Of a DNA stretch of 64,000 nucleotides, positions 1-36,244 are shown piece by piece. Under the pieces are notes generated by a model. The model saw only the letters and a program-made list of their open reading frames with translations. It had not been told where the DNA came from and searched no databases. Both the position numbers and the translations under genes were made by a program. This DNA comes from Tubulanus polymorphus. Its lineage: Eukaryota > Animalia > Nemertea. Positions within the stretch are counted from its first letter, which is position 1. Each line of letters opens with the position of its first letter. The stretch lies in NCBI RefSeq assembly GCF_964204645.1, contig NC_134036.1, positions 11,015,859 through 11,079,858 on the forward strand, read 5' to 3'.

Positions 1-87
1 ATGGTCCATCTTTTTTTATAGATTTGGTACTTCTTAAAATCGGGACCAGGATAAGTTTGGAATTAAAATTACTTTTTATACGTGTTT

Positions 88-148
88 TTTTATTCACTCG
101 ACCTTTCGACTTCTGGTATAGAACAACACATTTACAACGACTGTTATT
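88..148 (+). repeat. Remnant of the element-A terminal hairpin (right arm)
   Basis: TCACTCGACCTTTCGAC..TAGAACAACA..ACTGTTAT aligns with 34393-34446. Confidence 0.6.
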
Positions 149-5605: not shown

Positions 5606-7685
5606 CAATTCAACTGAAATTATACCAATGATTGCCCAGCTTGATATTGATCGAAATTTGCGTCGATGTAGAATCGATATGCACACGGCCCTTTAAAATC
5701 GATCTGCGCGCATCACAGAGTTTTAAGTGTATATAACGTTTCGATCTCACGGAAATTTATCATATTTGATTAGCTGTCGTTTTCCAGACTTTCAAATATT
5801 AATTTGTCATATGCTAATCAAATATGATATATTCCTGTGAGATCGAATAAAATATTTTCGCTGATGTACCATGTGTGTGTATAGAACGTATTATTCTGAC
5901 CGGCCTTACATCTGCGATTGTAAGTGACCATGGAATCCGATGGTTGTGTGGATTGTAAATTTCCAGCGCGTGTTTTGTCGACCACTGGGTTTGGTCCCGA
6001 CTGCCGAATTAATGCCGTAGATCACAGTTACTCGCTGTATAAACGACATGCACAGTTGTCACGCCCTGTTTTTACCGTCAATCGGGTCATCGTCAGTGCT
6101 TTTAAATCTGCCAAAAATTTGTGGACTGTCAAATCTTTTATTTTTTTATTTGGCTTACTAATTTGCAAATAATCAAAGCCACCATCCCAACTCTGTGTAA
6201 ATACCGTACTAGGACGTATCTTTACAATAAGTAGAGACGTAGCGTGGTTTCCGCAAACTACAACGGTTTTATAGTTAAAGGACGTGCCGTCATATGATAC
6301 AACGTGTTGACTGTGCTTTCATTGACAAACACGAATGCTTTTGGCCGATTGATTATTTTCATTTAAACGATTATCATGTTTTACTGACCGCCTAAAATTG
6401 GTGTGAATTGAGGTACTTATCTATATAAGATGATTCTCGCATTTTGAAAAGGATATTTAGATATTATTGTCGCCATGCATATTTATAGTTTTTGCAGAAA
6501 CTGTGTTGTTAATCCAAAGAGAGTTTTCTTTTCTTAAACTCGAGAATCTTCAATTTCAAAGTCAATTCGACACCGATCTCCTTGAGCAATGAACCAACAT
6601 AAAACTGAAACATATCCAAGCGACGGATGAGGTCAATTAGGTGAAGTTTAACCTATAGTTAGATAGTTATACGTTATAATGAGAATTATTATTTCTAAAT
6701 TCGTAGTCGTGAAATCAATGGAAATACTAATGGGACTGTGGTTTCTATAAATAAATGAAGGCGAAGAAAACTGAAAACTGCTCCTGAACCAGGTTCCACT
6801 TAATATATGAGCAATTACTCATTGGTTCAAAGAATATCCAAGTGGAAAAAAATTCATTTACCCTATATGATGGAGTATTCTTATATATCGGTCTACATAT
6901 CATAGTCTATTAATTAAGGGGTTTTGCAGATAAGGTTCGTACAATTACTTAACGCTCTATTCAGGTCTTTTTCGACCATGAACCAAATCATTTGACTCTG
7001 GCTCCAGTTCCAGTGTTATGTGTGTTTTATTTTACTCTGAATCCAGTATACAATTTTGGTAATTTTTGTCTCTTAGTGTAATGGTAAAGATGAAAACTGG
7101 ATTCGGAATCCATTAATTTGATATGGCTGAATACGTTTATTAGTTAACTATATAATTTTGGGTCCGGAATCTTTAGTAAAATATAAAACAGACGCAATTG
7201 GTTCATATTTTACCCGTTTACACTCGGGATTCAAGTGCTGAAATTAACGCCCGACAAGTTGAGAGAATTGAATAGAAAAGTAAATAGTGTATGAATATCT
7301 GAAGTGTAAATACATCAGCGAATTTTCTATATAAACGTTTTTATATCGAATGCAGCAACCGAACGTTTAACACGAAGGCAAAACCGTTAGTAGATAACAT
7401 ACGTATAGTGATAGCAAATGTGCGCGATATTTTTCATTAACGTGTCACATTTAGTAGAACATGTACATTCTAAGTGTTTCGAGGTTTTAACCGATATAGA
7501 TTAGAAGTTATGTTGCATACATTTCATACCAAATTGTTCTTATATTTGAGATGAGGAACTAATTTCATTGAATGATTCAGGTGTTTTAAAAAAGACGCGA
7601 AGGGGCTTCTGAACTAATTTCAAACGACTAATCAAACGAATCACGCGTTCTTAACATATAAATGAATCAATTATGATAAATTATA

Positions 7686-10216
7686 ATGACAGAAGAAGAT
7701 AAAGAAGCATTTGAGTTTGCAGATAAATGTTATTATTGTGAAAAGATATTTAATTTTAGAGATAAAAAAGTAAGAGACCATGATCATTTGAATGGAAAGT
7801 TTAGAGGTGCTGCACATGAGAATTGTAACTTACAAGCTAAGAAAATTAACTTTGTACCAGTTATATTTCATAATCTATCAGGATATGATGCACATTTATT
7901 CATCAAACAGTTATGTCATAAAATAGAAGAAATCAATAATAAAATAGACAGATTAAATTCAAATAGATCAAAAGATAAAATACCAACTTATAAATTTAAA
8001 ATGTTAGCTAGAACATCTGAGAATTATATATCATTCCAATTTGGTTGCCTAAGATTTATAGATTCATATAGATTTTTAAATAGTTCATTAGATAACTTAT
8101 CAAAATCATTAGTTGATGATGAATTAAAAATATTAAAACAACACTACCCAAATAATGATGATTTTAAATTAATGAGATATAAAGGCGCAATTCCATATTC
8201 TTTCTATAAAAATCATAATGATTTTAACATAACTGAATTATTGAAAGAACAATTCTATGATGAATTAAAAAATGAATATGTTAAAGATGAAGTCTATAAT
8301 AGAACATTGAATATTTGGAATCATTTCAAAATAGAAAATCATGGACAATTAGTAGATTTATATTTAAAATCAAATGGATCATTATTATCGGATATATTCG
8401 AAAGATTTAGAGATGTAAACCTAAAATATTTTAATATTCATCCATTGTTATTCCAGCCCAGGTTTAACATGGGATTGTGGTTTAAAATTTACAGATATAA
8501 AAATGGATTTGTTAACAAATATAGATCAATTATTATTATTTGAAAAATCTATAAGAGGAGGTGTTTCAGGTGTATTAGGGGATATAGATATTTCAATGTA
8601 AATGATAACCCTGGATATAAGTTATTATATATAGATGCAAATAATCTATATGGTTGGGCAATGATGGAACCACAACCTTATGGAGTATTTGAAATAAGTG
8701 AAGTTTCACAACATGAAAATAATGATAAATTTGATTGGAAGAAAATAATTCTAGATATTGCAGATGATTCAGATACTGGTTACTTCTTTATTGTAGATTT
8801 AGAATATCCTGAACATATTAAATTTAAATCTAGAAATCTAGCATACTGTCCAGAACATAAAACTGTTACTCATGAAGAATTATCAAATTTAAAAAAAGAA
8901 TTAAACCCGAAAATCATATTCATACAGAAAAGTTAATGGTAACTCAAGAAGATAAATATAATTATGTAGTACATTATAGAATGTTAATGTTTTATCTAAA
9001 ACAAGGAATGATCCTAAAAAAGTACATAGTTATATTTCATTCAGTCAATCTAAGTGGTTAGAAAAATATATAGATTTTAACACCAAACAAGGACATGAAG
9101 CTAAAACTGATTTCGAGAAAGATTTCTTCAAGTTAATGAATAATGCATTCTATGGTAAGACTTGTGAAAATATTAGAAATAGAAATGATATTGAGTTAGT
9201 TAGTAATGGTAAAAGGATAAGGCATTTACAATCATATCCTAAGTTTTTAGGTAACAGAATATTTGATGAAAATTTAGCCGCAGTTAAAATGAGAAGAACT
9301 TCTATGAAATTTAATAAACCAATCTATGTTGGCGGTTTAGTTTTAGAATTATCAAAATTACTAATGTATGAATTTTATTATAACATATTACAACCTCATT
9401 TTGGAGAAAAACATATAGACATCCTATATCTAGATACTGATGCGTACATATTAAAGATAAAAACTAATAACATAACTGATGATTTAAAAACATTAAAACA
9501 TCATTTTGATTTCAGTAACTATCCTAAAGATCATGAATTGTTTAGCAATGATTATAAAAAAGTTCCCGGTAAATTCAAAGATGAATTAGGTGGTGAAGAA
9601 ATGATAGAGTTCATAGGTATTAGATCTAAAATGTATTCGTAAAGAAAGATATCAAACAGATTTTAATTCTAAAATGAAACAATGTCTAGGTAATAGATTA
9701 TCACAATTATTCAGTAAAGAAGCGCATTCAGTTACACTATCTAATTTATTGGGTTGTTCAGATGAATTTCTCAAATCATGGATTGTATATCAATTCAACG
9801 ATAAAATGAATGAAAAAAACTATGGTGAATACTTTCATATTGATCATGTGTTACCGATATCTAAATTTAACATGAATGATGAACACAATCAGAAATTAAT
9901 TTGGAATTGGAAGAATCTAAGACCTCTTGAAAAGAAAGAAAATCAAATCAAATCTAATAAACTAGATTTTCAGTTATATTTGGATCAATTAGATAAAGCA
10001 AAGAAATTCATTGAATTTTGGAACAATGAACCAAATAATGAACAATATGTTGAAGAAATTGAAAAGATTAGTCTAAACCCATTTGATGATAAAAGATATA
10101 TTCTGGATGATGGAATTCATACAGTTGCTTGTGGATGTAATTTAGATGAATACTTAAAATTTAAAACAGAAAAAACAAAAGAGAACGAGATAATGAAAAG
10201 AATTCTATCGTGTTAA
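7686..10216 (+). pseudogene. polB: Protein-primed family B DNA polymerase of element A (fragmented)
   Basis: Endonuclease VII-like VRDHDHLNGKFRGAAHENCN, exo VIFHNLSGYDAH and FIDSYRF, IRGGVS, YIDANNLYGWAM, KLMNNAFYGK, YLDTD, GKFKDE, RSKMYS, C-terminal LNPFDDKRY..DGIHT. Confidence 0.95.
9641..10054 (+). other. HNH endonuclease segment embedded in polB
   Basis: KERYQTDFNSKMKQCLGNRL..LLGCS..FHIDHVLP..NLRPL..NQIKSNK; close paralog of 21149-21595. Confidence 0.85.
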
Positions 10217-10245
10217 TCAAATTTTAATAAAAATATGTATTATAA

Positions 10246-10595
10246 ATGGAGAGTAAACAAACACACAGTGAGAGCAACAAATTATTTCTAGATAGAATAA
10301 AAGATACTACAAATGTAAAATCTGTAGATTATAAATTCAAAAAGTTAACAGAATTAATAATCCATAAGAAATATCTAATTACAAATATTGATACAGTTAC
10401 TAACAAATATGGAGATAAATTAGTTATACACTTAGAATATGAAGGATTAAAAGGAAATACATATACATTCAGAACATATTTACCAGATTTTATAGATTAT
10501 CAAGTGAAGATTTAGAAGAATTATGTTCTGGTGATTTCTATTTCGTATACAAAGGTAAGAATGAAAAGGGGCACCATGAAATAGATTTCGAATAA
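10246..10595 (+). pseudogene. Small conserved Polinton protein, possibly OB-fold ssDNA-binding protein (one frameshift)
   Basis: FKKLTEL..Y.I....TNKYGDKLV..L....YLP pattern; continues in another frame to HEIDFE*; second copy at 33998-34235. Confidence 0.5.
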
Positions 10596-10609
10596 AATAT
10601 GTAAAATAA

Positions 10610-11368
10610 ATGGTAGAATTGAAATAATACAGAATATTTGTTGATTCTAGAAGACTTACAAATTATAAATCACATAATTTACTAGTACAATTAGATAGAG
10701 AATTCAAGAATTGTGTAGATTTAAAATTAGTAAATATAAGTTTATGTAATTCTTTTTACAATGTATCGGATAAAACTATTGAACATAGAGTCTTTTTAAT
10801 TCATGATAGAAATAAATGTAAATGGTTTCATCTTTATCTTAAACCAGGATTATATAATTTAGATACATTAGCGCAGGAAATTAATAGAAGAGCTCGGTTG
10901 AAAATGGGTGCATCTGCTGGATTTGGATTAAGACTGATTAAAAGTGATAGCTCCGATAAAATAAGAATAAAATTAGGTAATGAAGATCAACATCAATTTC
11001 TAGTTAAAAAACCTTTAGCTAAAATTTTAGGAATAACCCCAGATGTACGGATACGCAATGCTGATTCTACACCAAACTTAATACCTTTTACACACTTTTA
11101 TATTTATTGCAATTTAATTGATCCTACAAAAACATTCGAAGCAACTAAAGATATAACTTGTAATTCTGGTTTACTAAACATTTTACCATTGAAGAATGTT
11201 AAAGAATTTGGAACGCAAATAAATTATAATTTAACAGAATGTGATTTCAAACCATGCATTCCTCGTTTTAATAATTTTAGATTAGAAATTAGAAATCATA
11301 ATGGATATTTAATTGATTTGAATAACTTTCCTGTAATTTATGAATTAGTTATAAGATGTAGAGAGTAA
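10610..11368 (+). pseudogene. Minor capsid protein (penton), one early in-frame stop
   Basis: IFVDSR N-terminus, SFYNV, KPGLYN, LAKILG, YIYCNLID, EIRNHNGYLIDLNN; ATG 10610 is in frame with ORF 10898-11368. Confidence 0.8.
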
Positions 11369-11386
11369 TTTTTTTTCACTATATAA

Positions 11387-11728
11387 ATGAATATAACTGT
11401 TGGACCGAGTATATGTTTTAGGTTTGATTTTAAACATGGTAAAGAAATGAGAATTAAACTAAATGATGTAATTACTGATATAAAAAGTAAATCATTTAAC
11501 AATGCATCAATGATTAATAAAGAAAATTATAATATAGGAAAAGTATTTGATTTAATTAAATCACCTTTAGAATATTATGAATTAAATGAAGATCGAATTA
11601 TTGATAATATTAAAAACATATTAACCAAAATATATGATAATCATAAAAGTAGTAATGAAATAAATGTTGAAATAATCATAAATAAGATAACTAAATATTT
11701 TGATGATAGTAATTTCTTTGATAAATAA
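11387..11728 (+). CDS. Hypothetical protein of element A
   Basis: Intact ORF with TAAATG start, tightly packed between neighbours. Confidence 0.65.
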   Translation: MNITVGPSICFRFDFKHGKEMRIKLNDVITDIKSKSFNNASMINKENYNIGKVFDLIKSPLEYYELNEDRIIDNIKNILTKIYDNHKSSNEINVEIIINKITKYFDDSNFFDK

Positions 11729-11950
11729 ATGAGTGATAATAAGTGGATAATAACTGGATTATATCATGGAGCATTACTATCAGTTGGAACTGTTGGTTAT
11801 TCAATGGTTTTAAAAAAAGTATTTATAATGGGAAGTATTAATGTTGATAGATTTGATATAAATGATATCTTAAAATTAACATTAGCAGTTACTTTATCTA
11901 AGTTAACTATTGATTATTTGGAAAAACAAAAATATATTCCTCCCATATAA
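11729..11950 (+). CDS. Small hydrophobic protein of element A
   Basis: Intact ORF, TAAATG overlapping the upstream stop, two hydrophobic segments. Confidence 0.7.
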   Translation: MSDNKWIITGLYHGALLSVGTVGYSMVLKKVFIMGSINVDRFDINDILKLTLAVTLSKLTIDYLEKQKYIPPI

Positions 11951-11974
11951 ATGCGTAATTATTTTACTAAATAA

Positions 11975-12397
11975 ATGGCTTCTGCAGTTATAACTATTAT
12001 AGGAACGGCAATTGTTAACGCTTTAGCATTTACTGGAGGTGGATATTTATTTAAGCATATTGATAAAAATGGATCATTATCAGAACAAAAAAGACATAAC
12101 TTAGCATTAGAAAAATATAATAAAGCAGCAGAAGAATATAGAGAAAAGAGGCAAAACTATATGGATTATATTAACAAGGAATTATATGATCAGAAGATTT
12201 CACATAGAGATTTTCAATCAGTTGATGATGCAATGAGTTTATATAACGCGGTAACCAATAAAGAAAAATTACATCTACATAAACCTACAATATCAGATTA
12301 TTATACCCAAAGTAAAGAACAACAGAAATATGAAATAATATGGATTTTAGGTGGAACTGTTATTGTTATATTTGTAGCGTATAGATTTACTAATTAG
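11975..12397 (+). CDS. Membrane protein with N- and C-terminal hydrophobic helices
   Basis: MAS..IIG.A.VNALAFTG..YLF and E.KRH.LALEK motifs recognised from alpha-adintovirus-like elements. Confidence 0.75.
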   Translation: MASAVITIIGTAIVNALAFTGGGYLFKHIDKNGSLSEQKRHNLALEKYNKAAEEYREKRQNYMDYINKELYDQKISHRDFQSVDDAMSLYNAVTNKEKLHLHKPTISDYYTQSKEQQKYEIIWILGGTVIVIFVAYRFTN

Positions 12398-12418
12398 TAA
12401 TTTTTTTTTGCAAAATAA

Positions 12419-12845
12419 ATGGATGATAATATTGATATTATTCCTCATGATATAAAGAAAAATAAATTAAAAATATATTTAGAAAAAAAAAATATTAGAA
12501 TTTGAAAGTGACTTAAAGATAAAAAACAAAAAATATTTAAAAAGTAAAATTATATATTATTTGATTATAAGTGGTTCGGTTACAATTAGTTCTGTAATAA
12601 CATTTCTAGCAATATTCAGTCCATTAACACCTTTAGCTATATCAATTGGTGTATTAGGATTAAGTTCAAGTGTTTTAACCGGAATAAGTTCAAAATTAAA
12701 TATAAAAAGTAATAAAGAAAAAATCAAAACTAATGTAAAAGAAATTGATAAATTAAAGAATACACTAGATTATATAATAAGTTCAAATGGCCATATAACA
12801 GTTGAAGAACAAGATAAATTATTAAAAGAATTAGTTAATTATTAA
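12419..12845 (+). pseudogene. Two-TM protein, frameshifted in A-runs
   Basis: TAAATG start at 12419; hydrophobic ORF 12561-12845. Confidence 0.6.
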
Positions 12846-12861
12846 TTTTTTAATTATATAA

Positions 12862-14145
12862 ATGGGGTTTCCAAAAGCTTTCCAATATAATAAATCAATT
12901 AAATATAATATTCCTGCAATAGATTTAAAACAAAATATTACATATAAAATTGTAGTTTTGAATTCATTAACTAATTTAGAAATTTACGTTACTCAATCAC
13001 AGTTTTTATTTCTAAATTGGAAAATATGTTTAATACATATGAAGTTACTTTTACTCGAGATGAGTATCATATGTATAAAGTAAAATCTAATATGAAATAT
13101 TGGCAGAACCAATTAAATTTTGCTGTTTATTGCGCAACAACTGGTTGCGGTATAAGTTGGAATGATCATTTAAATAACTTAGATAAAAATTTGAATTATT
13201 CTGATTTAAAATTAATTCACACGATATTTAGATTTCACACATATTTTCAAATCAGAATAATATTAAATGAATTAGAATGTCCTTTACCCGGATCTAAATA
13301 TTTTAAAGAATTGGACAATAATATTAATCTATCTAAGTTTTATAAAATATGTAATGAATTTAATATAAACATTAATTCCGATTTTAGAGCGCATGGTAAA
13401 TTGCCATTGTGTTGGTGAAGAGTATGAAATAAAAAGAATTGATTATATGCATAGAATTGGAGCTTATCATAATTATAAAATTGATAATAATAATGGTTGG
13501 GTTAATTTCATTTTAGAAAATGGTGAAGGTTTTACAAAATCAGGTATACAAAGAATAAATCAATCAATTAGAACTTATTTGATATGTATTTTAGGTGCGC
13601 AAGTTGAAACAAGATCACCAATAGTTGGAAATGATAACACTTCATTCGATGCGCAGAAACAATTCAATGTATTATTTGAAGATTCCATTCATAATGATAA
13701 AAGTATATCGATTCCAGAAAACATTGTAAGATATCAAAATTATTTAGATAAATCACATATTAGATTAAATTATTGTATAAGCCCTAATCTATTAATTATT
13801 TCTAATGATTAAGTATTAAAGATGGGAAATATAATTGGTTATAATAATCTAATTAAAACTGCAACAATAAATAATTCATTTGGATTAAATGATATAAATA
13901 AAACGATTATTACTGCTCCAAAATTAATGGAAGGTGAAAAAAATAAAAAACACATTCAATCAACTGAAACTAAAACTAATGATTCTAAAATAAAAGATTA
14001 CAATACATCAGAAAATATTAGAACTGATAATATTCAACATGATATAATTAAAACTGATAGTGATAATAAATCCCATGAAAATGCTAAATTAGCTATAACT
14101 TGTATAGGAATTGTAATCGGAGGAATATTATATTTTAAATTTTAA
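12862..14145 (+). pseudogene. Conserved element-A protein with C-terminal TM (four ORF fragments)
   Basis: WQNQLNFAVYCATTGCGIS, FRFHTYFQIR, GFTKSGIQRINQSIRTY, DAQKQF motifs across overlapping ORFs. Confidence 0.7.
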
Positions 14146-14160
14146 TTTTTTATTATATAA

Positions 14161-15592
14161 ATGGATGAAGAAATTCCATTGGATCCTTTAGATGAACCTG
14201 GTATAAGTGATGAACCACAACCTGATTTTAATGAAACTAATATTGATAATGATGATGAATCAGCATATACTTCTAATTCTAATTTAGCAGATAGTGGTTC
14301 TAAAGCCCCATCAACACAAGAAAATGATAGAAGAACTAGATCGAGAATAGATCCTGAAAATGAAAATCCAGATTTATGAAAGAAAAATTTAGAATATAAT
14401 GAATTTATGTATAAATTCATACCTGTATTTAAAGATTCTGTATATAATATAAATGCTAGAGGCGCCAGACTTTTAGTACAAGATTTAAAATATTTAGATG
14501 GTGAATATTATTATCATTTGAAAGATGATTATTATATTGATATCTCTTATAAAAAACAAGAAAAAATATTAAAAGAATCAACTTTGGGAAAAGAACCAGA
14601 TAGAATTAAAAGAATAAGTAATAGTAATGTAATAACTGATCTTACCGACACAGAAATAAATCAAAATAGAAGAGTATCTAAACAAAGAATTAATGACTTA
14701 TTTGAAACAATCGATGATAATTCAGAAAAAGAAACAACTTCTGAACAGAATAAAACTTCCAAAACTAGTAATCTTAAATCAAACACTGAAGTTCAAACTG
14801 AAAAACTTTTACCGAATGGATTACTTGATGCAACAGATCAAGAAATAGAAGCTTTAAGTATGTTTTCTAAAAAAACAATTAGAGAAATAATAAGTATACG
14901 AAATGAAGCCGATAAAATTGCGCGCGAAAAAAATATTAGATATAATAAAATTAAACCTTTAGAAAATAAATTATTCGACACCAGAAAAGAATTAGAACAA
15001 TTAAAATTAGATAGAGAATTTAAAGTTATTGAAGAAATTGAATTTAAAAAAAGAAATGCATATTTAGAAAAAGAAATTGATGATTTAGAATATAACATAG
15101 ATTTCAGAAAGAAAAAATGAAATTATTATTAAAATCATATGATTATTGTATTAATAGATTAAAAGTTGTTGTTAAAGAGTTAATAATAAAACCAAATTCT
15201 GACATATCACTAAAAGATAGAATAAAATTATTATTTAAGTTTGAAGGAATACCAATTCTTTCAATTCTAACAGCTGTAACTATGTTATTTACAACAATTG
15301 GTTTAGCAATATCAAATTCTACTCCTACTCCCAATAAACCGGATAAACCCCCAGATAGTAATTCTATACAAGATAAAGTTAAGGATGGTTTAAAAAAATA
15401 GCAAAATATTTATGGGAACTATCTAAAAAATCTGCTGCAGCATTACCAGGAATTATTGCATCAATTGTTGGTTTTATATTCAAATCTGCCGGGAATATTC
15501 TTAACTTTGCTGCTGAACATATTATTTTATTTTTAATTACAGTTGTAAGTGCAATTATTTTTGGGTTAGTTAACATGATAAAAAATAAATAA
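14161..15592 (+). pseudogene. Acidic N-terminus / coiled-coil / multi-TM protein (fragmented)
   Basis: ORFs 14161, 14407, 15117 plus continuation KSAAALPGIIASIVGFIF to stop at 15592. Confidence 0.7.
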
Positions 15593-15611
15593 TTATGTTT
15601 TTGTTAAATAA

Positions 15612-16858
15612 ATGAGTGGGAGTTATATCAATCCTTCTAAGAATCATAGAATATCTAATGCTATTAAAGCAGAAAGATCACATCATATAATTACTCATAA
15701 CCTTTCTAATATTAATCCTGATGAAACTTTATATGTTAGAATTCCTCGATTAACACAAAATACTTTTTATGTTCCAAATAGTATTTATTTATCAGCCGAT
15801 ATAAAAGTAATCGGTAATAACAATAATTATGTTGTTGATAATGTTGGGAGATATTTGATTAAAAAATTAACTATAAAGATTTGCCCAGAAACAGCTTTCT
15901 CATTAGATGATTATAATCTATTTATGCATTATAAAAATTTATGGTTAACTAAAGAAAATAGAAATAATATGATATTTCAAGGCATCCAATCAGAAAACCA
16001 AAATAAATTAAGATCAGGAGCTAATGACGCAATAGTGACTCGTACCGCAGATAATTTGATAAAAAAGATTTATGGAAGCAAATATAAAATTCCATTAGAC
16101 TTTGAATTGATAAATAATAATGCGCCTTTATATAAATATGCAATTCAAGAAGATGTTATATTAGAAATAACATTTGCTCCTGTAAATGAAATTGTTTTAT
16201 CTAGCGTTATTAAAGATTTGGGTTATAAATTATCGAATATATGTTTAGAATATGATACAGTAACTGATGAACATATTTCAAGTATAATTCAAACTAAATA
16301 CAATCAAGGATTTTCATTATTATATGATTATATTGATAAATTTAAAACTGTAACTATTAATGCAAATGATGAAATAATTTATGAGAATATTAACTTCCCA
16401 AGAAGATCTATTAAAGGTATATTAATATTTTTTACCATTGCAACATATTCTAATGGTGCAATACAGGTTGATAAGTATTAAAATCCTGAAATAACAAAAG
16501 TAGAAATAACTATCGAAGGAATAGCAAATAAAATATTTTGTCAAGGAATGAGAATGATAGATCAATGGCCAGAAATTAGAAAACATTTTATGAATGAAAA
16601 AGTGAAATCATCTGAAAATTGTAATATTAATCGAATTGATTATTATACCGGTAATAAATATGCATTATGGTTAGATTTTAGAACAACAGAGGATAATTCA
16701 TTACATGGTTCTGGAAAAAAATTACAAAACACTAAAGATGGAATACAATTATTCATGACAAAGAAAAAAGGAAGCCTAAATTTCAAAATGCATATTTATA
16801 TTATATCTGACGCGCAATTAAATATTGTAAATTCTCAATTAAATAGTGTTATGTATAA
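15612..16858 (+). pseudogene. Major capsid protein (double jelly-roll) of element A
   Basis: ETLYVRIPRL, VDNVGR, YG.KY.IPLDF, LSNICLEYD, RRSIKGIL, ALWLDFR, HGSG, ISDAQLNI; single in-frame TAA at 16479-16481. Confidence 0.88.
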
Positions 16859-16891
16859 GAATTTTAACTTTAATAAAAATTTATATAATAA

Positions 16892-17815
16892 ATGGAAGGA
16901 GGTTAAGTATATAAACATATTCCATATATCGATACACATGCAAATAATGATGGTTTATATTATGTAATACCTTGTAATATAGCTTTGATATTTGATCCTA
17001 TTTTCAAAATTTATAAAACTAAACTAATAGAAATCGATAATAATAAAAGTGAAGTTGTTGATAATTTAAGTAATGTAATTGATAATAATGCAATACCTTC
17101 TACATCTAATAATGTAATACCTTCTATATCTAATGATGTAATACCTTCTACATCTAATAATGTAATACCTTCTACATCTAATAATGTAATACCTTCTACA
17201 TCTAATAATGTAATACCTTCTACATCTAATAATGTAATACCTTCTACATCTAATAATGAAATAATATTAAATATTAGTGAAAATAGAAATTATTGTGATT
17301 ATTGTTAAGGTTAATTTTCAAACGCTCCATCAAATTGGAATAAACATATGAATACAAGGGTACATATTACTAATGTTATAGAACGTGTTGGTTTAAGAGA
17401 AGTTATAGAACACCCATTTAGACATGGTACAAAATTTGTTTCAAATAAAAAAGTAAATGGTAAAGAATTATATGAAGATTTATTATTAGCAACACCTAAT
17501 AAAGATGAATTAGATTTAACCGATGCTAATAAAATATTAGGATCAAACATTGTAAAAGAAATATTAGGAGCAAACACTAAGAAAGATGATAATGAAATTA
17601 TAGTTACAGATAAGCATATTGATAATAAAGATTCTATGAAACATAAAGTAGAAAATAATGATAAATTTGAATGGATGAATAAGCATAACAATGAAACAAC
17701 TACTGATGATGCGGTAAAAAGGATGAAGAATAAGTATAAAAATAAAACAACTATTGATGTAGATTCGGTAGAGCATTTGAATAAATTGTTAGGGTATGAT
17801 AATGAAAGTGATTAA
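16892..17815 (+). pseudogene. Repeat-containing C2H2 zinc-finger protein (three in-frame stops)
   Basis: TAAATG at 16892 is in frame with ORFs 16985 and 17348; YCDYC...WNKHMNTRVH finger. Confidence 0.6.
17084..17257 (+). repeat. 24-bp coding minisatellite x7 (NNVIPSTS)
   Basis: AATAATGTAATACCTTCTACATCT repeated in tandem. Confidence 0.95.
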
Positions 17816-17847
17816 AATATTAATTATATTTAACTCAAATAATAATA

Positions 17848-18240
17848 TTGGTTGAAAATTGTATAAAATAATAGTTAATAAAAAAGGGGGTTTTAAGTAT
17901 TTAAGGTATCTAATAGGGTATCTAATACATATCTAATACATATCTAATACATATTATTTGAAAATACCTTAAATTATATTTCTTTTTTAAATTTATATTG
18001 AAACCTTAGTAATAATAAATAACCTTTATTATTTTAAAACTTATTCATATATTAGTTGAAAAAATAAAAATAAATTGGTTGAAAATTGTATAAATAATAT
18101 TTATTTTAAAAAAGGGGGTTTTAAGTATTTAAGGTATCTAATAGGGTATCAGGTATTAGGGTATCTAATAGGGTATCAGGTATTAGGGTATCTAATAGGG
18201 TATCAGGTATTAGGGTATCTAATAGGGTATCTAATACACA
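17848..18240. repeat. Central non-coding repeat region between the convergent arms
   Basis: ~75-bp direct repeat (17849 and 18076), 11-bp TATCTAATACA x3, 27-bp GTATCTAATAGGGTATCAGGTATTAGG x3.5. Confidence 0.9.
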
Positions 18241-18253
18241 GATATATAAATAG

Positions 18254-18865
18254 TTATTTTATAAATTTATATTCATATGGAAATTGTAGTCTCATTAATA
18301 ATTTTGAACCTTTATTATTCTTTAATTTATTCATATATTCATCATGTAATTCAGTAGGTATAATTTGATTTTCTTCCAATGATTGTTGCATAGATTTTCT
18401 ATCTTTGTTATAAAATAAAACTAGAAATCTTATATTCTCCCTAATGTCTTTAACAATTGAATTATATTTTTGATTTAAAACCCATGTTGTTATCCCAAAA
18501 TGTCTCCCAGAGAAAGCTAAATAACATAACTCACTTTCTCTAACGTTTGAATCATGTAAATTTGCGCAATCATCTATAATGAATAATGTATTTGATCGTT
18601 TGTAAGTATCAATTGCTATTTTAATACAATTATCTAAATTTTCTTTTACTGTTTTAGGATTTAATATAATAAACTTTTTTATCTTAACTATATCTCTATT
18701 ATATGTTTTATTCATTTCATAAGTAGGACAAAATAATATTATGTTATCAAAATGATTCTTATAAATAGTTTCTAACAAATCTAATATGAAATGTGTTTTA
18801 CCACAATTGGTTACTCCAGTAACTAACATATTATGCGGTATAAATATAGATAAATCTTTATTCAT
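18254..18865 (-). CDS. A32/FtsK-HerA genome packaging ATPase of element A
   Basis: Walker A GVTNCGKT, Walker B LFIIDD, SGRH arginine finger, VLNQ. Confidence 0.92.
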   Translation of the reverse strand: MNKDLSIFIPHNMLVTGVTNCGKTHFILDLLETIYKNHFDNIILFCPTYEMNKTYNRDIVKIKKFIILNPKTVKENLDNCIKIAIDTYKRSNTLFIIDDCANLHDSNVRESELCYLAFSGRHFGITTWVLNQKYNSIVKDIRENIRFLVLFYNKDRKSMQQSLEENQIIPTELHDEYMNKLKNNKGSKLLMRLQFPYEYKFIK

Positions 18866-19979
18866 TTATTCTTTTAATTTTACTAGATAAAATCCATTCA
18901 TTAAATTTATCATCATATCCTTTATATTTCACCAAAGAATACTTTTTTCCTTTAAGAGTTTTTGTTTTCAATACTTTTTCTATTTTATATTCTATTTCAT
19001 CTGGATTTGGTACAAGTGATAATTCTTGTTCATAGAAATAACCTAATATTTCTTCATCTTTTAGATCTTCTAACTTATAAACAAATGGTTTAGTTAATAT
19101 TATCTTTTTAATCTTGAATATTTCTTCTGTAAAATTAGGGGTATAACCTTTATAAAATGTTTTTCTATATTTAGATATGCTAACGTGTTGTCCTATCTTA
19201 AATTTAGGTTCTCCAAAATCATGTGTAACAAATGCTCCATATAAATTATTCCAAACTATTTCTGAATTATCTTCTTTTCTAGCTTGTATAGGTTTCATAT
19301 TTATAGAACTATGTTTAGAATTATTATAACCTTTCACTAAATCATCTAACACATCGATATATTTGTATGTTTCATTAGCAGTATTTCCATATATATCCAC
19401 ATTAATATTTCCACATTCTAGTTTTCAATGTTTTATTAAACCTTTCTATAATAGATGCTTTTTTATCTGAATATGTTGAAAAATAATCTACATCGTTATC
19501 GGATAATAGTTTTTTGACATGTTTGTTATAAAATTCTTTACCTTCATCAAATTGTATCTTATCTGGAATAGCTTCTTTAAATATTGATTTAAAAGCATTT
19601 GTCACTTCTATACCAGTTTTATTTTTGATTGGAATTGACCATGCGTATCGACTGAATATGTCTATAACATTTAATATCCAGAAATATCCTTTGTTGTATT
19701 CCTCTAAGTTCTGTCAATTAAATCTGCTTGCCATTGTTGATCGATATATGAAACCATAACTTTTCTTGTTAAATAAGTTTTATCCATTTTCTTGTGTATT
19801 TGATATGTTGGTTGATTTTGTAACCATGATTTCAATTCACTTTATTTCATATTACCATTTTCTTTATCAGATTTAATTTTATTCCATAATTCTGTAACGT
19901 TAGAATATGATACTTTACTTCCTGGGTTGTAATATAACTCTCTTAAATATTGTTCTTTTTTCATCTTATTTTAATCCAT
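18858..19979 (-). pseudogene. Retroviral-type (rve) integrase with C-terminal chromodomain
   Basis: LYYNP, WQADL, IDIFSRYAW, IQFDEGKEF, IERFNKTLK, GYTPNFTEE, Y.IEKVL..LVKYKGY..NEWI. Confidence 0.92.
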
Positions 19980-20346
19980 TAATAATAATTTAGATTTAGT
20001 TTCAATGGCTTTATGATTCGACTTATTTTCTGGTATGATAGGTTTATCATCGTTGGAATCATCTTTATCATCAAATTTGAATTTTGATTTATACAGTATA
20101 TAGTACACCGGATAATATAATAACTGTTACTAATCCAATTGTAATATATAATTTATAATTACTTCCAGCATTAGAAGAATCAGATGGATTATTATTTGAA
20201 TCAATATCAGATAATTTCTGTGGTTCATTTATATCAGTTAATTTCTTTTTCTTAGCTTTTTTAATTCAGCAGATCTTTTACCTAATTCTCTTGACCATTT
20301 AATTTGTTTCTCGGATCTAGGCTTCTTCTTTAACGCCATCACTCAT
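19980..20346 (-). pseudogene. Basic N-terminal, single-TM hypothetical protein (fragmented)
   Basis: TAAATG start at 20346; lysine-rich segment followed by a hydrophobic stretch; fills the gap between neighbours. Confidence 0.45.
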
Positions 20347-20941
20347 TTATTTTAGTTAATTTTTGTTCTGATTCATTTTCTGTTTCACCGTTTGGTTGTA
20401 GTTCATCTGTTTCGTTCTTACCTGATTTATATTCCATAGGCTTGATATTCGAAAATGTTATGACGCCAGTAGAAATTAATGTCATAACCGATCCTAATTG
20501 AAATGAAGCATAACCAACCCATTTTTGTAATTCAGTCATAACTAAATAGTCATTTTTCAAATCACTATATAATTTATTTTCATCATCAATTGGTATTAAC
20601 TGGTTACATAACTTAGAATAACATTTGACAATACCATTTGAAATAGAATCATTTATTTGGGCTAATCTTGCCTATTCATAAATCTTAAAATATTTTATTA
20701 CTTTATCAGGTTTCATAGCATCTAATTCTTGAAAAGTTATTATTTTTCCCAAGAAATCTTTAGATTTTCCTCCAGCAATCAATAGTTCTAGATGATGCTT
20801 ACAATATAAATAGTATTCATAATCTATATTACAATTAACTTGAGCACAATTAGTTACAACTGTATCTTTATTATCAATTATACCCAAATCATCTAATGTT
20901 TTTTCAATATTAATACTATTCTTATTAGATTTCTTTGACAT
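20339..20941 (-). pseudogene. Conserved hypothetical protein (one in-frame stop)
   Basis: ORFs 20941-20672 and 20560-20339 are in the same frame; GKSKDFLGK...Y..YE motif. Confidence 0.65.
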
Positions 20942-21148
20942 TTATATTAGAGAAAAGAAGAAAAAAAAAATATTATAAGTCTTCTTCAAATGATACTAGC
21001 TACTTAAAGCTAAAGAATTTCTATTCGGATCTATTCAAAATATAAAGTATTCTCTTTTTGAAAAGAAAATATTAAAAATATAATAGAATTCACTGGTTAG
21101 TTGAAGTTATATAATTGTTAATATTTTTTATTTGAGATATATTATTCT

Positions 21149-21825
21149 TTAACCACTCATTAAAGACTCAACGTATTGTTCATTATTTGGATCATTGTTC
21201 CATTGATCAATAAATTTCTTTGCCTTTGTTAACTGTTCTAAATATAACTGTAAATCTATTTTATTAGATTTGATTTTATATTCTTTCTTTTCAAGAGGTC
21301 TTAAATTTTTCAAACCCCAAATAAGTTTTTTATTGTATTCATCATTCATGTTAAATTTAGATATTGGTAACGTATGATCAATATGAAAATAATCTCCATA
21401 ATTATCTATATTCATTTGACTATCGAATTGAAATATAATCCACGATTTGAGAAATTCATCTGAACAACCCAACAAATTAGATAATGTTTCTGAATGTGTT
21501 TCTTTGTTGAATAATTGTGTTAATCTAGATCTTAAGCATTGTTTCAATCTAAAATTAAGATCTGTTTGATATCTTTCTCTCATATATTCTGCCATATAAT
21601 AATTATAATGTTCTATATTATCTTCTCGATATTGTTTGGTATATAGTTTAGTGCAAGTTTTACAGCAATATTGAAAACCATCTTTGCTAATCTTACGCTT
21701 ACTAAATTCTTTAAATGGTTTACACTATGGTTTACTAATTCACACTTAGAACACTTCTTGTAATATATATTTATAACACCAGTGTTATTTGTAATATTGA
21801 TAATTTGTGGTTGTTCTGGTTCCAT
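21149..21825 (-). pseudogene. HNH endonuclease with N-terminal zinc ribbon, of the type common in large DNA viruses
   Basis: KKCSKC N-terminus; D.NFRL...LRSRL, LLGCS, HIDH, NLRPL; frameshifted. Confidence 0.82.
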
Positions 21826-23129: not shown

Positions 23130-23426
23130 CATACTTGTAAATATATTATCTTTATCAAAATAATCTTCACCTATATTTCGAGTATGAATTTTAGATTTTA
23201 AATGTTCATTTTAATATCTTTTATCACTGAATGATTGATTACATGTATCACATTTGTATGTTTCTTTTTCATTCTTTAATTCATCTAATTTAGTTTCTAA
23301 TATATCATCTTTATATTTTAACTTTAATTTATTCTCTAAATGTGTTTTAGTTTTATTGTGTCTTGATTTTTGGGATTTATCTGTATTGATATTACATGTT
23401 GGGCAGTAGTACTTATTTGCTTCCAT
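23130..23426 (-). pseudogene. N-terminal zinc-finger region of the first element-A gene (likely polB N-terminus)
   Basis: YYCPTC..KSRHNKTKTH and YKCDTC..H fingers directly inside the terminal sequence; same composition as element A. Confidence 0.6.
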
Positions 23427-23505
23427 TTTAATACTAAATTTTTTGCTAAAATTGATTTTAGAAGTTCTTCATTTATATTTTATTCATGTATATGAATATT
23501 TTAAG

Positions 23506-23662
23506 AGTAATAGGGGTTCAGTTGTTCTAGGTTAAAGGTTGAACGGGCGGGTGAGTAAAAAATGAAAAATATGAAAATAATAATAATTTCTACTTGAATG
23601 AGGAGTGAAACTCATAAAAAATGAAAAATAAATTCGAGCGTGCGAGAATTTATTTTTTTTTT
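23506..23662. repeat. Element-A terminal sequence (partial hairpin)
   Basis: AGTAATAGGG..TTGTTCTAG.TTAAAGGTTG..GTGAGTAAAAAATGAAAAAT..GTGCGAGAATT matches 34295-34380. Confidence 0.8.
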
Positions 23663-23669
23663 CAATATC

Positions 23670-24166: not shown

Positions 24167-24625
24167 AGTAGTAGGGTATGTCACTATGGGGCCACAGTGG
24201 AGGGAGGAGGGAGGAGTGAGGAGGGAGGAGGAATGACGTCATACCGGAAGTGACGTCATACCGGAAGTGACGTAATCCAAGATGGCGACCGGAAGTGACG
24301 TCATCCAAGATGGCGGCCGGAAGTTGCGGTTAAAATTCAAATTTCAAATTTTTGGCGGGAAAATTCAAAATTTTTCCGTTAAATCCAAATCAAATTATTG
24401 ACAACAAATCCAAATCAATTTATTGGCGGTGTTAAATCCAAATCAAATTTATTGGCGGTGTTCAATCCAAATTTATTTATTGGTATGATTGAATCCTAGA
24501 TGGCGCTTACGCATTCCTATGCGTGTTTATGGGAAAAGTTGAATCCTAGATGGCGCTATTACGAGATCCTATGTGTACGTGGAGGTGAGGGGGGAAGTGA
24601 AGTTAAATCCTAGATGGCGCTTTTC
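24167..24625 (+). promoter_or_regulatory. Left terminal region of element B with clustered ETS, CRE/ATF, YY1 and CTCF-like motifs
   Basis: CCGGAAGT x4, TGACGTCA x3, CAAGATGGCG x2, AATCCTAGATGGCGCT x3, AAATCCAAATCAA repeats. Confidence 0.75.
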
Positions 24626-29872: not shown

Positions 29873-29932
29873 TTTTCTGTAAGAAAAAGAAAAACAAAAA
29901 TGAGTATGTGTTATTTTTAAAAGAGACTAATC

Positions 29933-30256: not shown

Positions 30257-30561
30257 AAAAAGGCGACTAGTGTTTTATGAAAAACAATCAAACCGTGAAT
30301 ATGTAAAATCGGAAAATAGTCAAACCGTATTTTTAACTAATGTTATTTTGTCAAAACCGTATAGTATTTTCCTATTAAAAAAGTTCAAACCTCATTTCTT
30401 CAAAATTGAAAATTTTTAAAACCTCGTTTAGTAAAAATAAAGAATCTAGTAAACCATAAAACGCTTGAACTGTTTTTTCTAAAATATTAGCAACCTCCGG
30501 TTTCTATTAAAAGTGTTTTTTTTCGTTCGCTACTAAAACACATAAACACCAAAACACTAAG

Positions 30562-31190: not shown

Positions 31191-31228
31191 AAGTATAATT
31201 TTCGACTAATAACTAATAAAAGAAGACC

Positions 31229-32280: not shown

Positions 32281-32574
32281 CTACTAGAAAACCTAATAGC
32301 GACTGTCAAAAAGCTTTGACCAATTACGAGGCTTCATTTTTGTTTGGGGGGGGGGGAGTGTCAGAGGTTAGAAAACCATAGTTTGATGTTGATACTATTA
32401 GTTAATTGACAAGTTGATATGATATACGAGAGTTAATTGGCTGTGCGGGTTTCATATGTGACCGAGTTACTAATAGTTAATTGGATGTACGGGTTTCATT
32501 GTTGGGTCAAGTTAATTCGATATTAATTGTGAATCGGCTATGTGGGTCTCATTTGTGGTCGAGTAAGCACGTTA

Positions 32575-33101
32575 ATGATGATTGAGGTTGTAAACGTTGT
32601 ATCCACTGCGCATTTGAATTGCCGTTTAAATTTAACCGATATTGCAAGAAAATTATGTAATGTCGTTTATGACCCCCGAAAGTTTAGCGGATTGATGTGG
32701 AAACATAGACGTATAAAAGGTAGCTGTCTATTGTTCGTTAATGGAAAAATGGTAGTGACAGGATGTAAAAGCGAGTTTAACAGCCGATGCAGTACACGGA
32801 AATTTGCTCGTTTGATACAAAGGATGGGTTACGTAGGGAACTTGAATAACTTGAAAATACAAACTATGACTGGAGTCGCAAAAATCGGTCGACGCGTAGA
32901 CTTAGTGCAACTTTCCAAAACAGTTGACGGTTGATTATAATCCTGAAATATTTCCCGGTTTTGTGTACAAATGTGAAAACGGAATAAAATGTATAGTACA
33001 TAACGGCGATACTTTAATATTGTCGGGTGCCAAAAAACTCAACGATTTTACAGGAAGCCTACGAAGAAGTTCTATTCTATACCATTCTTTGTTCCAAATA
33101 A
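32575..33101 (+). pseudogene. TBP: Intronless TATA-binding-protein homologue carried by element B
   Basis: NVVST, L.L..IA, YDPRKFSGL, LLFVNGKMVVTG.KS, RKFARLIQRMG, then YNPEIFPG.VY and LSGAK: the two TBP core repeats; two frameshifts. Confidence 0.88.
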
Positions 33102-33276
33102 AAAAGTCATTAAAAGCATATTGTTTTTTAAGTGTAAATAAAATTATGAGAAAAGATGAATTGGCGAAAGTTATTTTGTTGGTGTTGTTTGAAGCAGGAG
33201 GAGCCGAATTTCGAGTGTCAATTCAATAGAGTTAATTGAGTATTGAGCACGTGTTGCGGTAGTACAACTGTAATTG

Positions 33277-33997
33277 ATGAAAGCCGAACAGAAAAGATTC
33301 CTGGCGAATCAATATTATGGCGTCGACAAAGAAGGAAGTTTTTCAAACGCAAATACATTACTACGGATTTGTAAAAAAGAAAACAAAAATATCTCTTAAC
33401 GTGAGATACGAGACTGGTTAGCCGAACAAGAAGTTCATACGTTACACGCCAAAGTACGAAAGAGATTTCCCAGAAACAAAACTATGGCCTATCGAGTAAA
33501 CGAACAATTTCAGGTTGACTTGTGCGACGTTTCGAATATTTCGAAACACAACGACGGTTACAAATTTCTATTGACGGCTATTGATGTATTGTCTAGATAC
33601 GCGTTCGCTATACCGTTAGAGAATAAATTTAATTCTACCGTTGTGGATAGTTTTAAAAAGATTTTCAAGATTTGGAAACCTAGCGTTATTCAATCGGATT
33701 CAGGCACAGAATTTGTCGGTTCAAAAACGCAGGCGTATCTGAAAAACGAGGGCGTACGTTTTTTCCAAAGTAAAAACGAAGTAAAATGCGCTTTAATCGA
33801 AAGATGGATACGTACTTTAAAATCGAAAATGTATAAGATATTTTCGCATAGAAATTCATACAGATATATTGATTTGCTTAAAGATATAGTAGCGTCATAC
33901 AATAAATCGTTTCATCGTAGTATAAAAATGGCTCCAAACGATGTCAACGAGTTAAACGCGTACAAAGTTTTCAAGAATCTATACGGTACAATCCGTA
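33277..33997 (+). pseudogene. rve integrase of element B, 3' truncated
   Basis: YY....GSF, WL..Q..HTLH, FQVDLCD, IDVLSRYAF, QSDSGTEF, IERWIRTLK, YNKSFHRSIKMAP. Confidence 0.92.
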
Positions 33998-34445
33998 GTA
34001 AATATGTTCTGAATTTATATGTATTTCCTTTTAATCCTTCATATTCTGAGTGGATAACTAATTTATCTCCATAGTTATTAGTAACTGTATCAATATTTGT
34101 AATTAAATATTTCTTATGAATTGTTAATTCCGTTAACTTTTTGAATTTATAATCTGCAGATTTTACATTTGTGATATCTTTAATTCTATCTAAAAATGAT
34201 TTGTTGTTCTCACTGTGTACTTGTTCACTCTCCATTTTTATAACATATTTTTTATTAAAATTGATTTTAGAAGTTATTAGATTAATTTTGTAAGAGTAAT
34301 AGGGAATATGTTGGTCTAGATTAAAGGTTGAGAGGTTGAGTGAGTAGAAAATGAAAAATAAATTGTGCGAGAATTAATTTTTCATTTTTTACTCACTCGA
34401 CCTTTCGACCTTTGATCTAGAACAACATATTCCCTATTACTGTTA
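33998..34445 (-). mobile_element. Element-A family fragment: terminal hairpin joined to the SSB-like gene
   Basis: 34235-33998 encodes a close paralog of 10246-10490; hairpin at 34295-34441. Confidence 0.88.
34295..34441. repeat. 147-bp imperfect palindrome (70-bp arms, 7-nt loop)
   Basis: AGTAATAGGGAATATGTT...AACATATTCCCTATTACT with 7 mismatches. Confidence 0.95.
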
Positions 34446-35140
34446 TGATTTAATTAAAGTAGTTAATTTCACTTTGTTCTGTTCTAGGCAAAGAAACACA
34501 GTGTGAACAGAATGTCTAAGGCGGCAAACTAAATACGCATGTCGCACTACCGGAAAGGGTTGAATTACATTTTGAAAAGATCAACCGCCGCAGTAGCAGC
34601 ATTAACTAAAATAATCCCAAAACTTATTAGAAATGAATTGGAAGTATGATGTCATCATATAGTGAAAGCATAGGCTCGCTAATAAAAAATATCAATATCA
34701 TCAATTCAATTAACATCTGCAGTTGCTCAATTAACACATTTATTAATCTATTTATGTCCATGGAATTTTTTTCACTTTTCAGAAATTGTTACCAGTAATA
34801 TTACCAGGGATGATAGAAGAAAGGAAATTGAAAATGCACACCTGCCATCACTAAATGATCAGTGAGTATTATATCAGTTTACATTCATTTAAGTATATCT
34901 CCCTATCATTAAAAAATCTAATACCTACAAATTTACGTATGAAAAAAGGGGTTCGCACGAAGCCACTTAACGACTTCTATTTAGTTTAATCTTAATTGAA
35001 CATGACTAAACCACTTTAGTGCCAGGTTCCATTACGCATCTATGTGAAGTTACTTTGAACTTTGATATCGAGAAGTCTATCAAATTAATTCTTACAGTGA
35101 AATCAATGATAGCGCAGATGTTGATGCCGATGAAGCTGTT

Positions 35141-35482
35141 GTGTTCGGTGGCAATGAAGATAAAGCTGATGATGATCAAGATGACCGTGATAAAGATAAT
35201 AATGACAGTGAACAGTTGCAGGAACCAGTTAACCTGAAAAAGGGAGTGAAAGGAAAAAGCACGCGACAGAAGTGGTCATTGAAAGAACTCAATGAAATAA
35301 AGAAATATTTCATTAAATATCTCGAGAGTGGTATCCCTCCAAACACATTTGCATGTGAAAAAGCTAAAAAGCTTAGTAAAGCCAATAATGGAGAGTTGCC
35401 TTTAAGGCAAAGTCACCTTATCATAAAGAAAATTAGCAACATGAATGTAACAAAACGGCAATCTTTGAAAAATAAAAAGTAA
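35141..35482 (+). pseudogene. C-terminal SANT/HTH-like exon, probably of a Crypton-like tyrosine-recombinase transposon
   Basis: R.KWS..E...I..YF...L..G.PP....C pattern after an acidic linker. Confidence 0.4.
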
Positions 35483-36244
35483 TTTTATCCACATTCGCAA
35501 CTAAATAATACTGAAGCGATATTCTAAAGACGAGAAGTACTTTGTCCCCTTCACAAGTATAGAAATATTCTATTTGTAACATTTCTGATGTTGAAATAAA
35601 AATGGTGAATTTTAATTCATTGTTGTTTTAGCAATTGTCAGATGTTGCTTACTCTCTACATAAGGGGCATTTCAAAAAATTCACAAATGTAGCTATAATT
35701 GGTGTCTGTACAGTTTCCCACTCAGTGCCCACCAGTCTATGTATTAAGCCAATCAGATGTGTTGTTTTTACCAGCAGGTTCGCTCTATGAATAACCATGC
35801 ATCTGATTGGCTAGATATATAGATTGGCAGGCGCCGAGCAGGAACCTGTCACCCCAAAAAAATCTTGGGCGATATAATAGACCAATGAAGGCTTTGCAGC
35901 TGGGTTTGGTTGACATGGGCCTTGGCTAGCGGCAATCAAACCCTGGCAAGCGAGGATGTAGGCCATGTGGCCTGCAATCAAGTCATTTTCATCGAATACT
36001 AGAGGCCATATAATAGCTTAAACTGTCCACCGTTCACCCATTAGTACTGATTGACTAATGGTCAATATTGACCCTGTCCCATTATTAGACCGGACTAGTG
36101 ATATTCTTCCGTACAGACAGCAGAATGGTTGTTGCAAAAAGGCAGCCCGATGTTATTTTATGAAATTAGGATATCAAGTCACATGAGGTGCTTTTTGTTA
36201 GAAAAGTTTTTAAAGACACATAAGAATGTCTAGCCATATAAGCC

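Follow-up and report, generated by a model that had tools for sequence, protein, structure and literature searches.

The window, that is, the whole stretch of 64,000 nucleotides of Tubulanus polymorphus DNA that was analysed (GC content 22–46%, with intron-like signals), contains two decayed Polinton-type elements, called B and A here (Table 1). Of the traits that characterize Mavericks/Polintons, B has a pPolB gene, an rve integrase and a double jelly-roll capsid with a packaging ATPase; no B copy with both ends lies within the window, and hence the pairing of terminal inverted repeats (TIRs) and the 6-bp target duplication are not visible there. The pPolB remnant gave tblastn matches of 45–59% (C-terminal piece) to long open reading frames (ORFs) of the related loci L017, L030 and L036; no Pfam PolB match was obtained on its window pieces, and the long ORF of L030 matched PF03175. 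Inside the remnant, an HNH-like piece (9643–10053), 84% identical to an inverted piece at 21168–21578, precedes what looks like the last residues of the polymerase. The ORF at 15612 has 55 homologues, the closest of which (P0002) is 77% identical to it; the structural model of P0002 (pLDDT 84) matched the capsid proteins of iridovirus, PBCV-1 and mavirus (E values 1e-15 to 1e-10), so that the window ORF is predicted to encode a double jelly-roll capsid protein. The capsid profile of B gave no PDB match by sequence, and capsid queries found no relatives in the viral contig set. B showed no RNA polymerase gene. Between its convergent gene blocks lie 27-bp and related tandem repeats (17837–18258), and at the matching position palindromic repeats occur in three related loci (L011, L012 and L014).

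Element A has a TATA-binding-protein-like gene in two frames (32533–33229; PF00352, E 6.5e-24), and its likely left TIR (24167–24600) contains tandem CCGGAAGT and AAGATGGCG motifs, which we take to be ETS- and YY1-like, in the style of host nuclear promoters and unlike B. Elsewhere in the window we observed a 181-bp piece (43604–43784) with 90% identity to the B capsid gene, fragments of an apparent further capsid-like gene on the minus strand (41738–42803), and a nearly complete non-LTR retrotransposon (LINE; 50194–54752, minus strand) with an upstream ORF1 and with RVT_1 and endonuclease matches at 50194–53634.

Table 1. Features of the two elements and of the hairpin unit, in window positions.
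Feature	Position	Strand	Remarks
Lone decayed outer-type arm	86..147	+	without the early-like motif
Element B (decayed AT-rich Maverick)	~7.7–23.7 kb		22–26% GC
B body	7680..21825	.	gene starts TAAATG
B pPolB remnant with endonuclease VII	7680–10216		
B double jelly-roll capsid gene (predicted)	from 15612		stop codon breaks frame
B A32-like ATPase	18254–18865		Pox_A32 match
B rve-chromodomain integrase	18858–19964		PF00665 and chromodomain at 18858–19713
Start of decayed small Cys-rich gene	23335..23425	-	behind promoter shared with the hairpin linker
Second B-family end, same orientation	23502..23662	+	one inner arm, spacer, second motif copy; outer arm absent
Element A (GC-richer Polinton)	24167–33997		~35–46% GC; pPolB, ATPase, TBP-like and rve genes
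A left end, likely the true one: AGTAGTAGGG	24167..24176	+	separate from the hairpin; AGTAGT start
A rve integrase	33400..33997	+	PF00665; truncated by the B fragment; outside the hairpin unit
5' part of small B-family gene (~120 aa)	33998..34235	-	cut at 33998
Linker and promoter-like stretch	34236..34294	-	TAAAA-ATG at its end, T at -12
Inner arm	34291..34364	+	joined to B-family promoter; early-like motif (1 mismatch) points outwards
Loop	34365..34371	.	shorter than the small-hairpin loop of the 23.5-kb copy; 5-base insertion in many reads
Outer arm	34372..34445	-	inward reading starts AGTAAT at 34441; exact AAAANTGAAAA at 34389–34379 pointing inwards

The strongest short-loop hairpin of the window by far (score 50 against 21 for the next) lies at 34295–34441, with a GC content of 32%, richer than the B body. 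Its inverted arms measure 74 nt at 89% identity when extended to the limits given in Table 1. Folded as single-stranded DNA, the plus strand reached -57.4 kcal/mol (z = -17.9; 0 of 200 shuffles as good) and the minus strand -46.5 kcal/mol; the strand that ends 3' at the hairpin terminus, the plus strand, is thus favoured by 11 kcal/mol. Alignment and folding confirmed what had been noticed from the letters alone (hereafter the sequence-only reading), namely a 147-bp hairpin whose 70-bp arms differ at seven positions, five of them G-T pairs on the plus strand (34322, 34329, 34332, 34337 and 34347) and two transversions (34314 and 34360). Two of the G-T sites (34329 and 34337) are TCG/TTG and resemble CpG decay. 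Among the sites listed, the reads carried the pairing base in the majority of cases at 34376 (435/698) and in about half at 34314 (159/295).

The asymmetry of the arms had been called conserved and intrinsic, on the strength of the other copies in the window. This stood at two of the seven mismatch sites (and at the flank base 34294), which sort both other copies, and fell elsewhere: in the 23.5-kb arm, three sites carry the left base (34322, 34329 and 34360) and four the right base (34314, 34332, 34337 and 34347), and the copy at 86–147 has the right base at six of seven. The alignment of termini that had been proposed as a check found these two copies to be one-armed, and the end at 23.5 kb forms a small hairpin with an 11-bp stem. 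That arm matches each hairpin arm at 58 of 70 positions, and the hairpin arms match each other at 63 of 70. Against the viral contig set, a 22-mer arm pattern had no match and a 16-mer pattern had 10, with similarity over no more than 16–28 bases, which were judged to be chance; all 16 Rfam matches to the hairpin fell below the gathering threshold.

To which element the hairpin belongs is indicated by its junctions. The integrase of A is interrupted at 33997/33998 by a B fragment (junction inspected), and 33998–34266 is 91% identical to 10215–10483 of B. The linker, about 60 nt long, is common to 23426–23505 and, partly, to 10215–10245. The small gene has a homologue (P0001) at 64% and an Atlas lead (0.82) to Phi29 SSB clusters (44% of members), a weak lead that it may encode an SSB-like protein. 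Read depth was determined from raw reads of run X5, which carries the same species label and comes from a study other than that of runs X1–X3 (about 12% of the run was used). Depth was about 52 over the A integrase, 790 over the small B gene, 1369 over the linker, and 445 and 1734 over the two arms, and to the right of the outer arm it fell from about 1730 to 84 and then 16. When the four lowest depth bins (about 5.5) are assumed to represent a single copy, this corresponds roughly to 10 copies of the A integrase, 140 of the small gene, 250 of the linker, 400 of both arms together and 3 of the right flank. The roughly 15-fold rise at 33998 coincides with 592 loose read ends that run on as the B gene; likewise, loose ends lead from 34231 into the gene behind the 23.5-kb arm (735) and from 34378 into the spacer of the 23.5-kb end (564; all three by eye, among the 24 of 420 rows listed). 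The 389 loose ends at 34441 agree at only 0.37, as mixed flanks would give, for which a mix of AT-rich subfamily flanks is an alternative source. About nine in ten reads spanning 34287–34290 carry the flank of the 23.5-kb B end.

Read inwards, the outer arm starts with AGTAAT, a Polinton-type end one base off AGTAGT; the near-complete relatives L030 and L036 start (A)GTAGTA, and vertebrate Mavericks have ends of (AGT)2 or (AG)3 with 6-bp duplications (PMC8097293). The GTTAT that follows the outer arm recurs beside the lone arm at 86, which leaves an uncertainty of about 4 bases in the position of the terminus. The B-gene junction, the loose ends with mixed flanks, the AGTAAT end and its likeness to Maverick ends make it most likely that the hairpin is the tip of a B-family terminal repeat, and by analogy with the family and from the mixed flanks, the outer AGTAAT is likely the end that the integrase joined to host DNA. 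The sequence-only reading had the hairpin terminate A; the depth jump and loose ends at 33998 lead into a B gene instead, and A has an AGTAGT start of its own at 24167, so that its placement at the end of a Polinton-type element holds for B rather than A. We also considered 23506 and 34441 as the TIR pair of one element and rejected this, since both ends have one orientation with respect to their genes; the unit being palindromic, two B ends that point in one direction mimic a TIR pair around A. Next to both ends (34446–35960 and 23660–23790) we observed short exon-like pieces and a final ORF, without a Pfam match, that resemble the tail of Crypton-type elements. A CCAAT-containing inverted repeat (35710–35849) follows the ORF; as related sequence stands directly after the 23.5-kb end, both B ends precede this repeat type.

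The gene starts of B carry a signal that probably outweighs the hairpin in importance. The vaccinia late consensus is TAAAT(G/A) with T residues upstream (PMC5294985), and the tenth nucleotide ahead of TAAAT is a conserved T in late promoters (PMC11980589); in B the corresponding T sits 9 nt upstream of the first T in TAAAT, in agreement with the published position within one base. Among the 13 window B genes for which a relative anchors the start region (three matches beginning more than 30 residues in were set aside), 11 start with TAAATG, the misses being the integrase and the HNH-like piece inside the polymerase; the gene beside the hairpin starts TAAAA-ATG, not TAAATG. TAA preceded the ATG in 30 of 33 ORFs of the five close loci (of which L011 and L012 are near-copies) compared with 7.4% of all ATGs, in 22 of 38 ORFs of 13 middle loci, in 15 of 172 ORFs of 36 distant loci and in none of 16 in element A. 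A T at -12 was found at 45 of 48 ORF-opening TAAATG sites versus 21 of 72 other, short ones, and only once in 30 cases did the TAA serve as the stop codon of a long ORF upstream. In a capsid-protein tree with 29 members, from which 25 shorter or partial loci were omitted, the signature was carried by 12/12 rows of a clade with support of 100/99 and a GC content of 20–44%; it also occurs in L043 and L047 and is lacking in L024 and L025 on the same side of the tree. Because it follows the capsid clade and the AT-rich loci L032 (1/8) and L038 (0/4) on the other side are without it, the signature is not a by-product of AT content. The clade-wide TAAATG starts with T at -12 thus cover window positions 10246–21825, L011–L023, L043 and L047 and are absent from the sister group.

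By sequence, then, the B gene starts match the vaccinia late-promoter signature, and by analogy with mavirus, which is read by CroV, we give somewhat better than even chances to the B genes being read in trans by a late RNA polymerase of the pox type. In vaccinia, early transcription takes place within incoming cores, and a satellite would for this reason be expected to use late, not early, promoters. The helper virus proposed by the sequence-only reading is accordingly plausible as a pox-like one, mainly because of the late-promoter-like TAAATG starts across B, a signal that the reading lacked; no helper virus was seen in the window. A deoxynucleoside kinase gene in L013 (10343–10981, minus strand; PF01712, E 1.7e-31) would suit cytoplasmic replication. 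In the literature listings and open-access texts covered, we found no report of Mavericks with terminal hairpins or pox-late promoters, and none of TAAATG in animal Mavericks among titles and abstract openings. A term look-up found no 'promoter' in PMC8502044, PMC11131425, PMC11071308 and bioRxiv 10.1101/2024.03.23.586382, and the available parts of PMC10328495 and PMC11296320 hold no report of pox-late promoters in Mavericks.

The early-like motif of the arms is a different matter. It was found where the sequence-only reading had placed it, in the arms (34347–34359, plus strand, one mismatch; 34377–34389, minus strand, exact) and twice at 23557–23630 (23558 and 23617), and the four sites are copies within one repeat family, not independent occurrences. 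The vaccinia early consensus, AAAANTGAAAA at -13 to -25 (PMC5294985), is exact in the outer arm and has one mismatch in the inner arm, and none of 300 local shuffles of 34231–34445 produced it. The in-sense copy in the outer arm is 144 nt from the next ATG. The motif is missing from the copy at 86, occurs 0 times in the B body against about 1.0 expected, and stands in sense before only 2 of 52 ORFs of 12 relatives, which is no enrichment; L013 alone has four against 1.1 expected. The motif is therefore probably not a working early promoter, contrary to the role first proposed for it.

Evidence on the palindrome in other copies came from the reads and from related loci. An opposite-strand joint at 34379/34379 was supported by 53 reads with 36 different starts and by one contig each in X1 and X2, and two further joints lie at 34379/34385 (26 reads) and 34371/34396 (12 reads), 91 reads in total for the three (15 of 36 joints are listed). 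These indicate that some other copies consist of an arm followed by an inverted arm with a different centre, with the caveat that X1–X3 may be the window's own source and that fold-back read chimeras could add to the counts. The loops of both window ends have one orientation, and the read tables do not separate inner from outer arms. Among the 54 metagenome loci found with the capsid alignment, none had the hairpin, and the contigs of close relatives carry no recognizable end; the distant, near-complete L030 and L036 have internal hairpins, among them a perfect 24-bp stem within the terminal region of L030 (134–192), without the terminal ten bases repeated inverted. Two apparent likenesses were discarded: a loop 7-mer, CTCGCAC, common to the L030 and L036 ends in the same orientation is weak (some common 7-mer arises in 2.3% of shuffles, and the L030 copy sits in a reading frame), and the likeness of the first 124 bases of L013 to the hairpin does not exceed that of shuffles, 22–93% of which score as well.

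The mismatches favour one strand. All five transitions form G-T pairs on the 3'-ended strand (5/5, P=0.06); with the 23.5-kb arm paired to the outer arm, the ratio is 8/8 distinct events (P=0.008, post hoc and not independent). Three control inverted pairs split 20:19, 6:9 and 4:5, and show no window-wide strand bias that would explain the excess, and the decayed copy at 86 shows no bias (4:3, by eye). The bias fits selection for pairing on a strand that may prime itself; it would also fit one-strand deamination or chance.

We thus have a palindrome joined to a B promoter and gene, in high copy number and with a sharp AGT boundary, in a family whose genes start TAAATG with T at -12. An even chance is what we assign to the hairpin being the self-complementary tip of a B terminal repeat, primed by fold-back and likely so in the factory of a poxvirus-like helper. 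In such a cycle the integrase would, as is likely, join the outer AGT end to host DNA; on excision, the strand with its 3' end at 34441 would pair back on the inner arm, and the folded 3'-OH would prime synthesis towards the first gene, the one with the weak SSB lead. This fold-back priming would proceed in the manner of parvoviruses, alongside or instead of protein priming, which was available to B because it has a pPolB remnant, and the B genes would be transcribed late by the pox-type helper polymerase, a step graded as somewhat better than even. That the strand ending 3' at 34441 provides a ready 3'-OH primer after excision is a tentative proposal from analogy, with a chance somewhat short of even.

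The main rival, rather unlikely in our estimate, is an ordinary protein-primed Maverick end in which the terminal 70 bp were passively duplicated in inverted orientation, so that the role played for integrase and pPolB belongs to the outer AGT end alone, and the hairpin, the G-T bias and the A-rich motif are unselected. The pPolB remnant suits it, as do the 23.5-kb end without an outer arm and with a differing centre, the several centre variants in the reads, and the lack of a terminal fold-back in L030 and L036; the 5/5 G-T pairs taken alone, two of them at CpG-like sites, suit it too. It accounts less well for arm-to-inverted-arm joints in two studies, for arms that are more alike within the hairpin than between copies and for 8/8 transitions favouring one strand. 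If the hairpin were instead an independent MITE-like non-autonomous element, with its two AGT ends in head-to-head arrangement, that was fixed before B promoters, both arms would open with the same AGT end, as they do. The lone arm at 86–147, which lies apart from the B genes of the window, two X1 contigs in which part of the left arm runs into a second end close by (loose end 34331) and an arm depth (445 + 1734) above the promoter depth (1369) point the same way, though outer arms would equally give the excess. We consider this improbable: there is no target duplication at 34295–34441, the flanks differ, and the left flank is conserved between copies, with the inner arms fixed to B promoters because the 23.5-kb B-end flank is carried by about nine in ten reads. 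A MITE found away from A had been named as evidence against the sequence-only reading; the missing duplication and conserved left flank speak against a MITE, and the lone arm at 86 does lie away from B genes.

That the hairpin is a pox-type, incompletely paired telomere with an early promoter, ending A, as the sequence-only reading held, we regard as very improbable. Its appeal lies in the exact AAAANTGAAAA of the outer arm, which no local shuffle gave, and in the pox-late-like starts of the element family. The hairpin is not on A, which largely refutes this reading for A, and the early motif fares as described above. A replicated pox telomere would have long inverted repeats flanking it; here the palindrome ends after 70–74 bp at the AGT end, with mixed flanks and 32% GC. 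A role in resolution finds no match either, as the pattern T6-N7-9-YAAAW, which we take to be that of the resolution site, is absent from both strands of 34151–34550. About equally remote is a hairpin acting as RNA, in which an outward or read-through plus-strand transcript with a G-U-tolerant stem would feed small-RNA silencing of the family. The one-strand G-T bias would agree with this, and the best Rfam scores are on the plus strand (43 against 30 bits on the minus strand), all to miRNA-type stems; none of the 16 matches reaches its gathering threshold, any long stem would match, and no RNA is needed to explain why the hairpin lies at the end of an element. Taken on its own, the hairpin resembles an opened-out terminal palindrome of the parvovirus type more than a pox telomere.

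The hairpin alone is of modest weight, as part of a decayed repeat. Animal Mavericks may be transposons, autonomous nuclear viruses or parasites of larger viruses, and Maverick particles had not been observed according to a phylogenomic study (PMC8097293); the clade-wide match to the pox late promoter, which extends to the upstream T, indicates one particular type of helper and makes the choice between these testable. A self-priming terminal palindrome, if true, would be a second replication route for such elements without a polymerase of their own. It is conceivable, at odds that we hold to be low, that a widespread Maverick clade, endogenous animal copies included, consists of satellites of poxvirus-like viruses, with nearly all genes driven by the late RNA polymerase of the helper, and that, in at least B, self-priming from an opened-out hairpin end in the factory of the helper replaces or supplements protein priming.

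Compared with known systems, B is closest in gene content to Mavericks/Polintons (adintoviruses, Polintoviricetes), with which it shares the pPolB remnant, rve integrase, A32-like ATPase, double jelly-roll capsid, AGT-type end and high copy number; unlike those described in the accessible sources, it has an inverted copy of its terminal 70 bp directly within the end, and its genes have pox-late-like starts, both of which are lacking in the distant relatives of the present comparison. The mavirus provirophage of Cafeteria and CroV likewise combines an integrase and pPolB with gene promoters matching the late motif of its helper (bioRxiv 10.1101/068312); it has a protist host and a mimivirus-like helper, whereas the gene starts of B match the poxvirus late motif, in an animal host, and neither a helper nor activation was seen. 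Entomopoxvirus-associated Polinton-like viruses (PMC11296320) share with B a tie to poxviruses, having repeats similar to the poxvirus terminal region; unlike B with its rve integrase and pPolB, the two viruses with the end module use a tyrosine recombinase and a primase-helicase, and the text of that source gave no match for 'promoter' or 'motif'. Vaccinia genomes end in flip/flop hairpins that are AT-rich and incompletely paired, next to a resolution site with late-promoter activity (PMC8956199). The hairpin is like a poxvirus telomere in being an imperfect, mismatched palindrome beside promoter-like A/T runs and unlike it in having no resolution pattern, in not being AT-rich for its element and in its open AGT end with mixed flanks; flip/flop forms were not seen, and its mismatches are paired substitutions, those of the pox telomere loops. 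Parvoviruses have a terminal palindrome of similar size, the 3' strand of which primes itself; no Rep/NS1 gene of the parvovirus kind was seen in the window. The pGKL linear plasmids of yeast are not known to encode a capsid. They have TAAAN initiators and pox-early-like upstream elements (PMC6211774) and resemble the present reading of B as cytoplasmic linear DNA elements with poxvirus-like promoters, although, unlike B, they encode their own RNA polymerase; for the kalilo plasmid, a hairpin-forming deletion derivative is on record (cited in PMC11071308).
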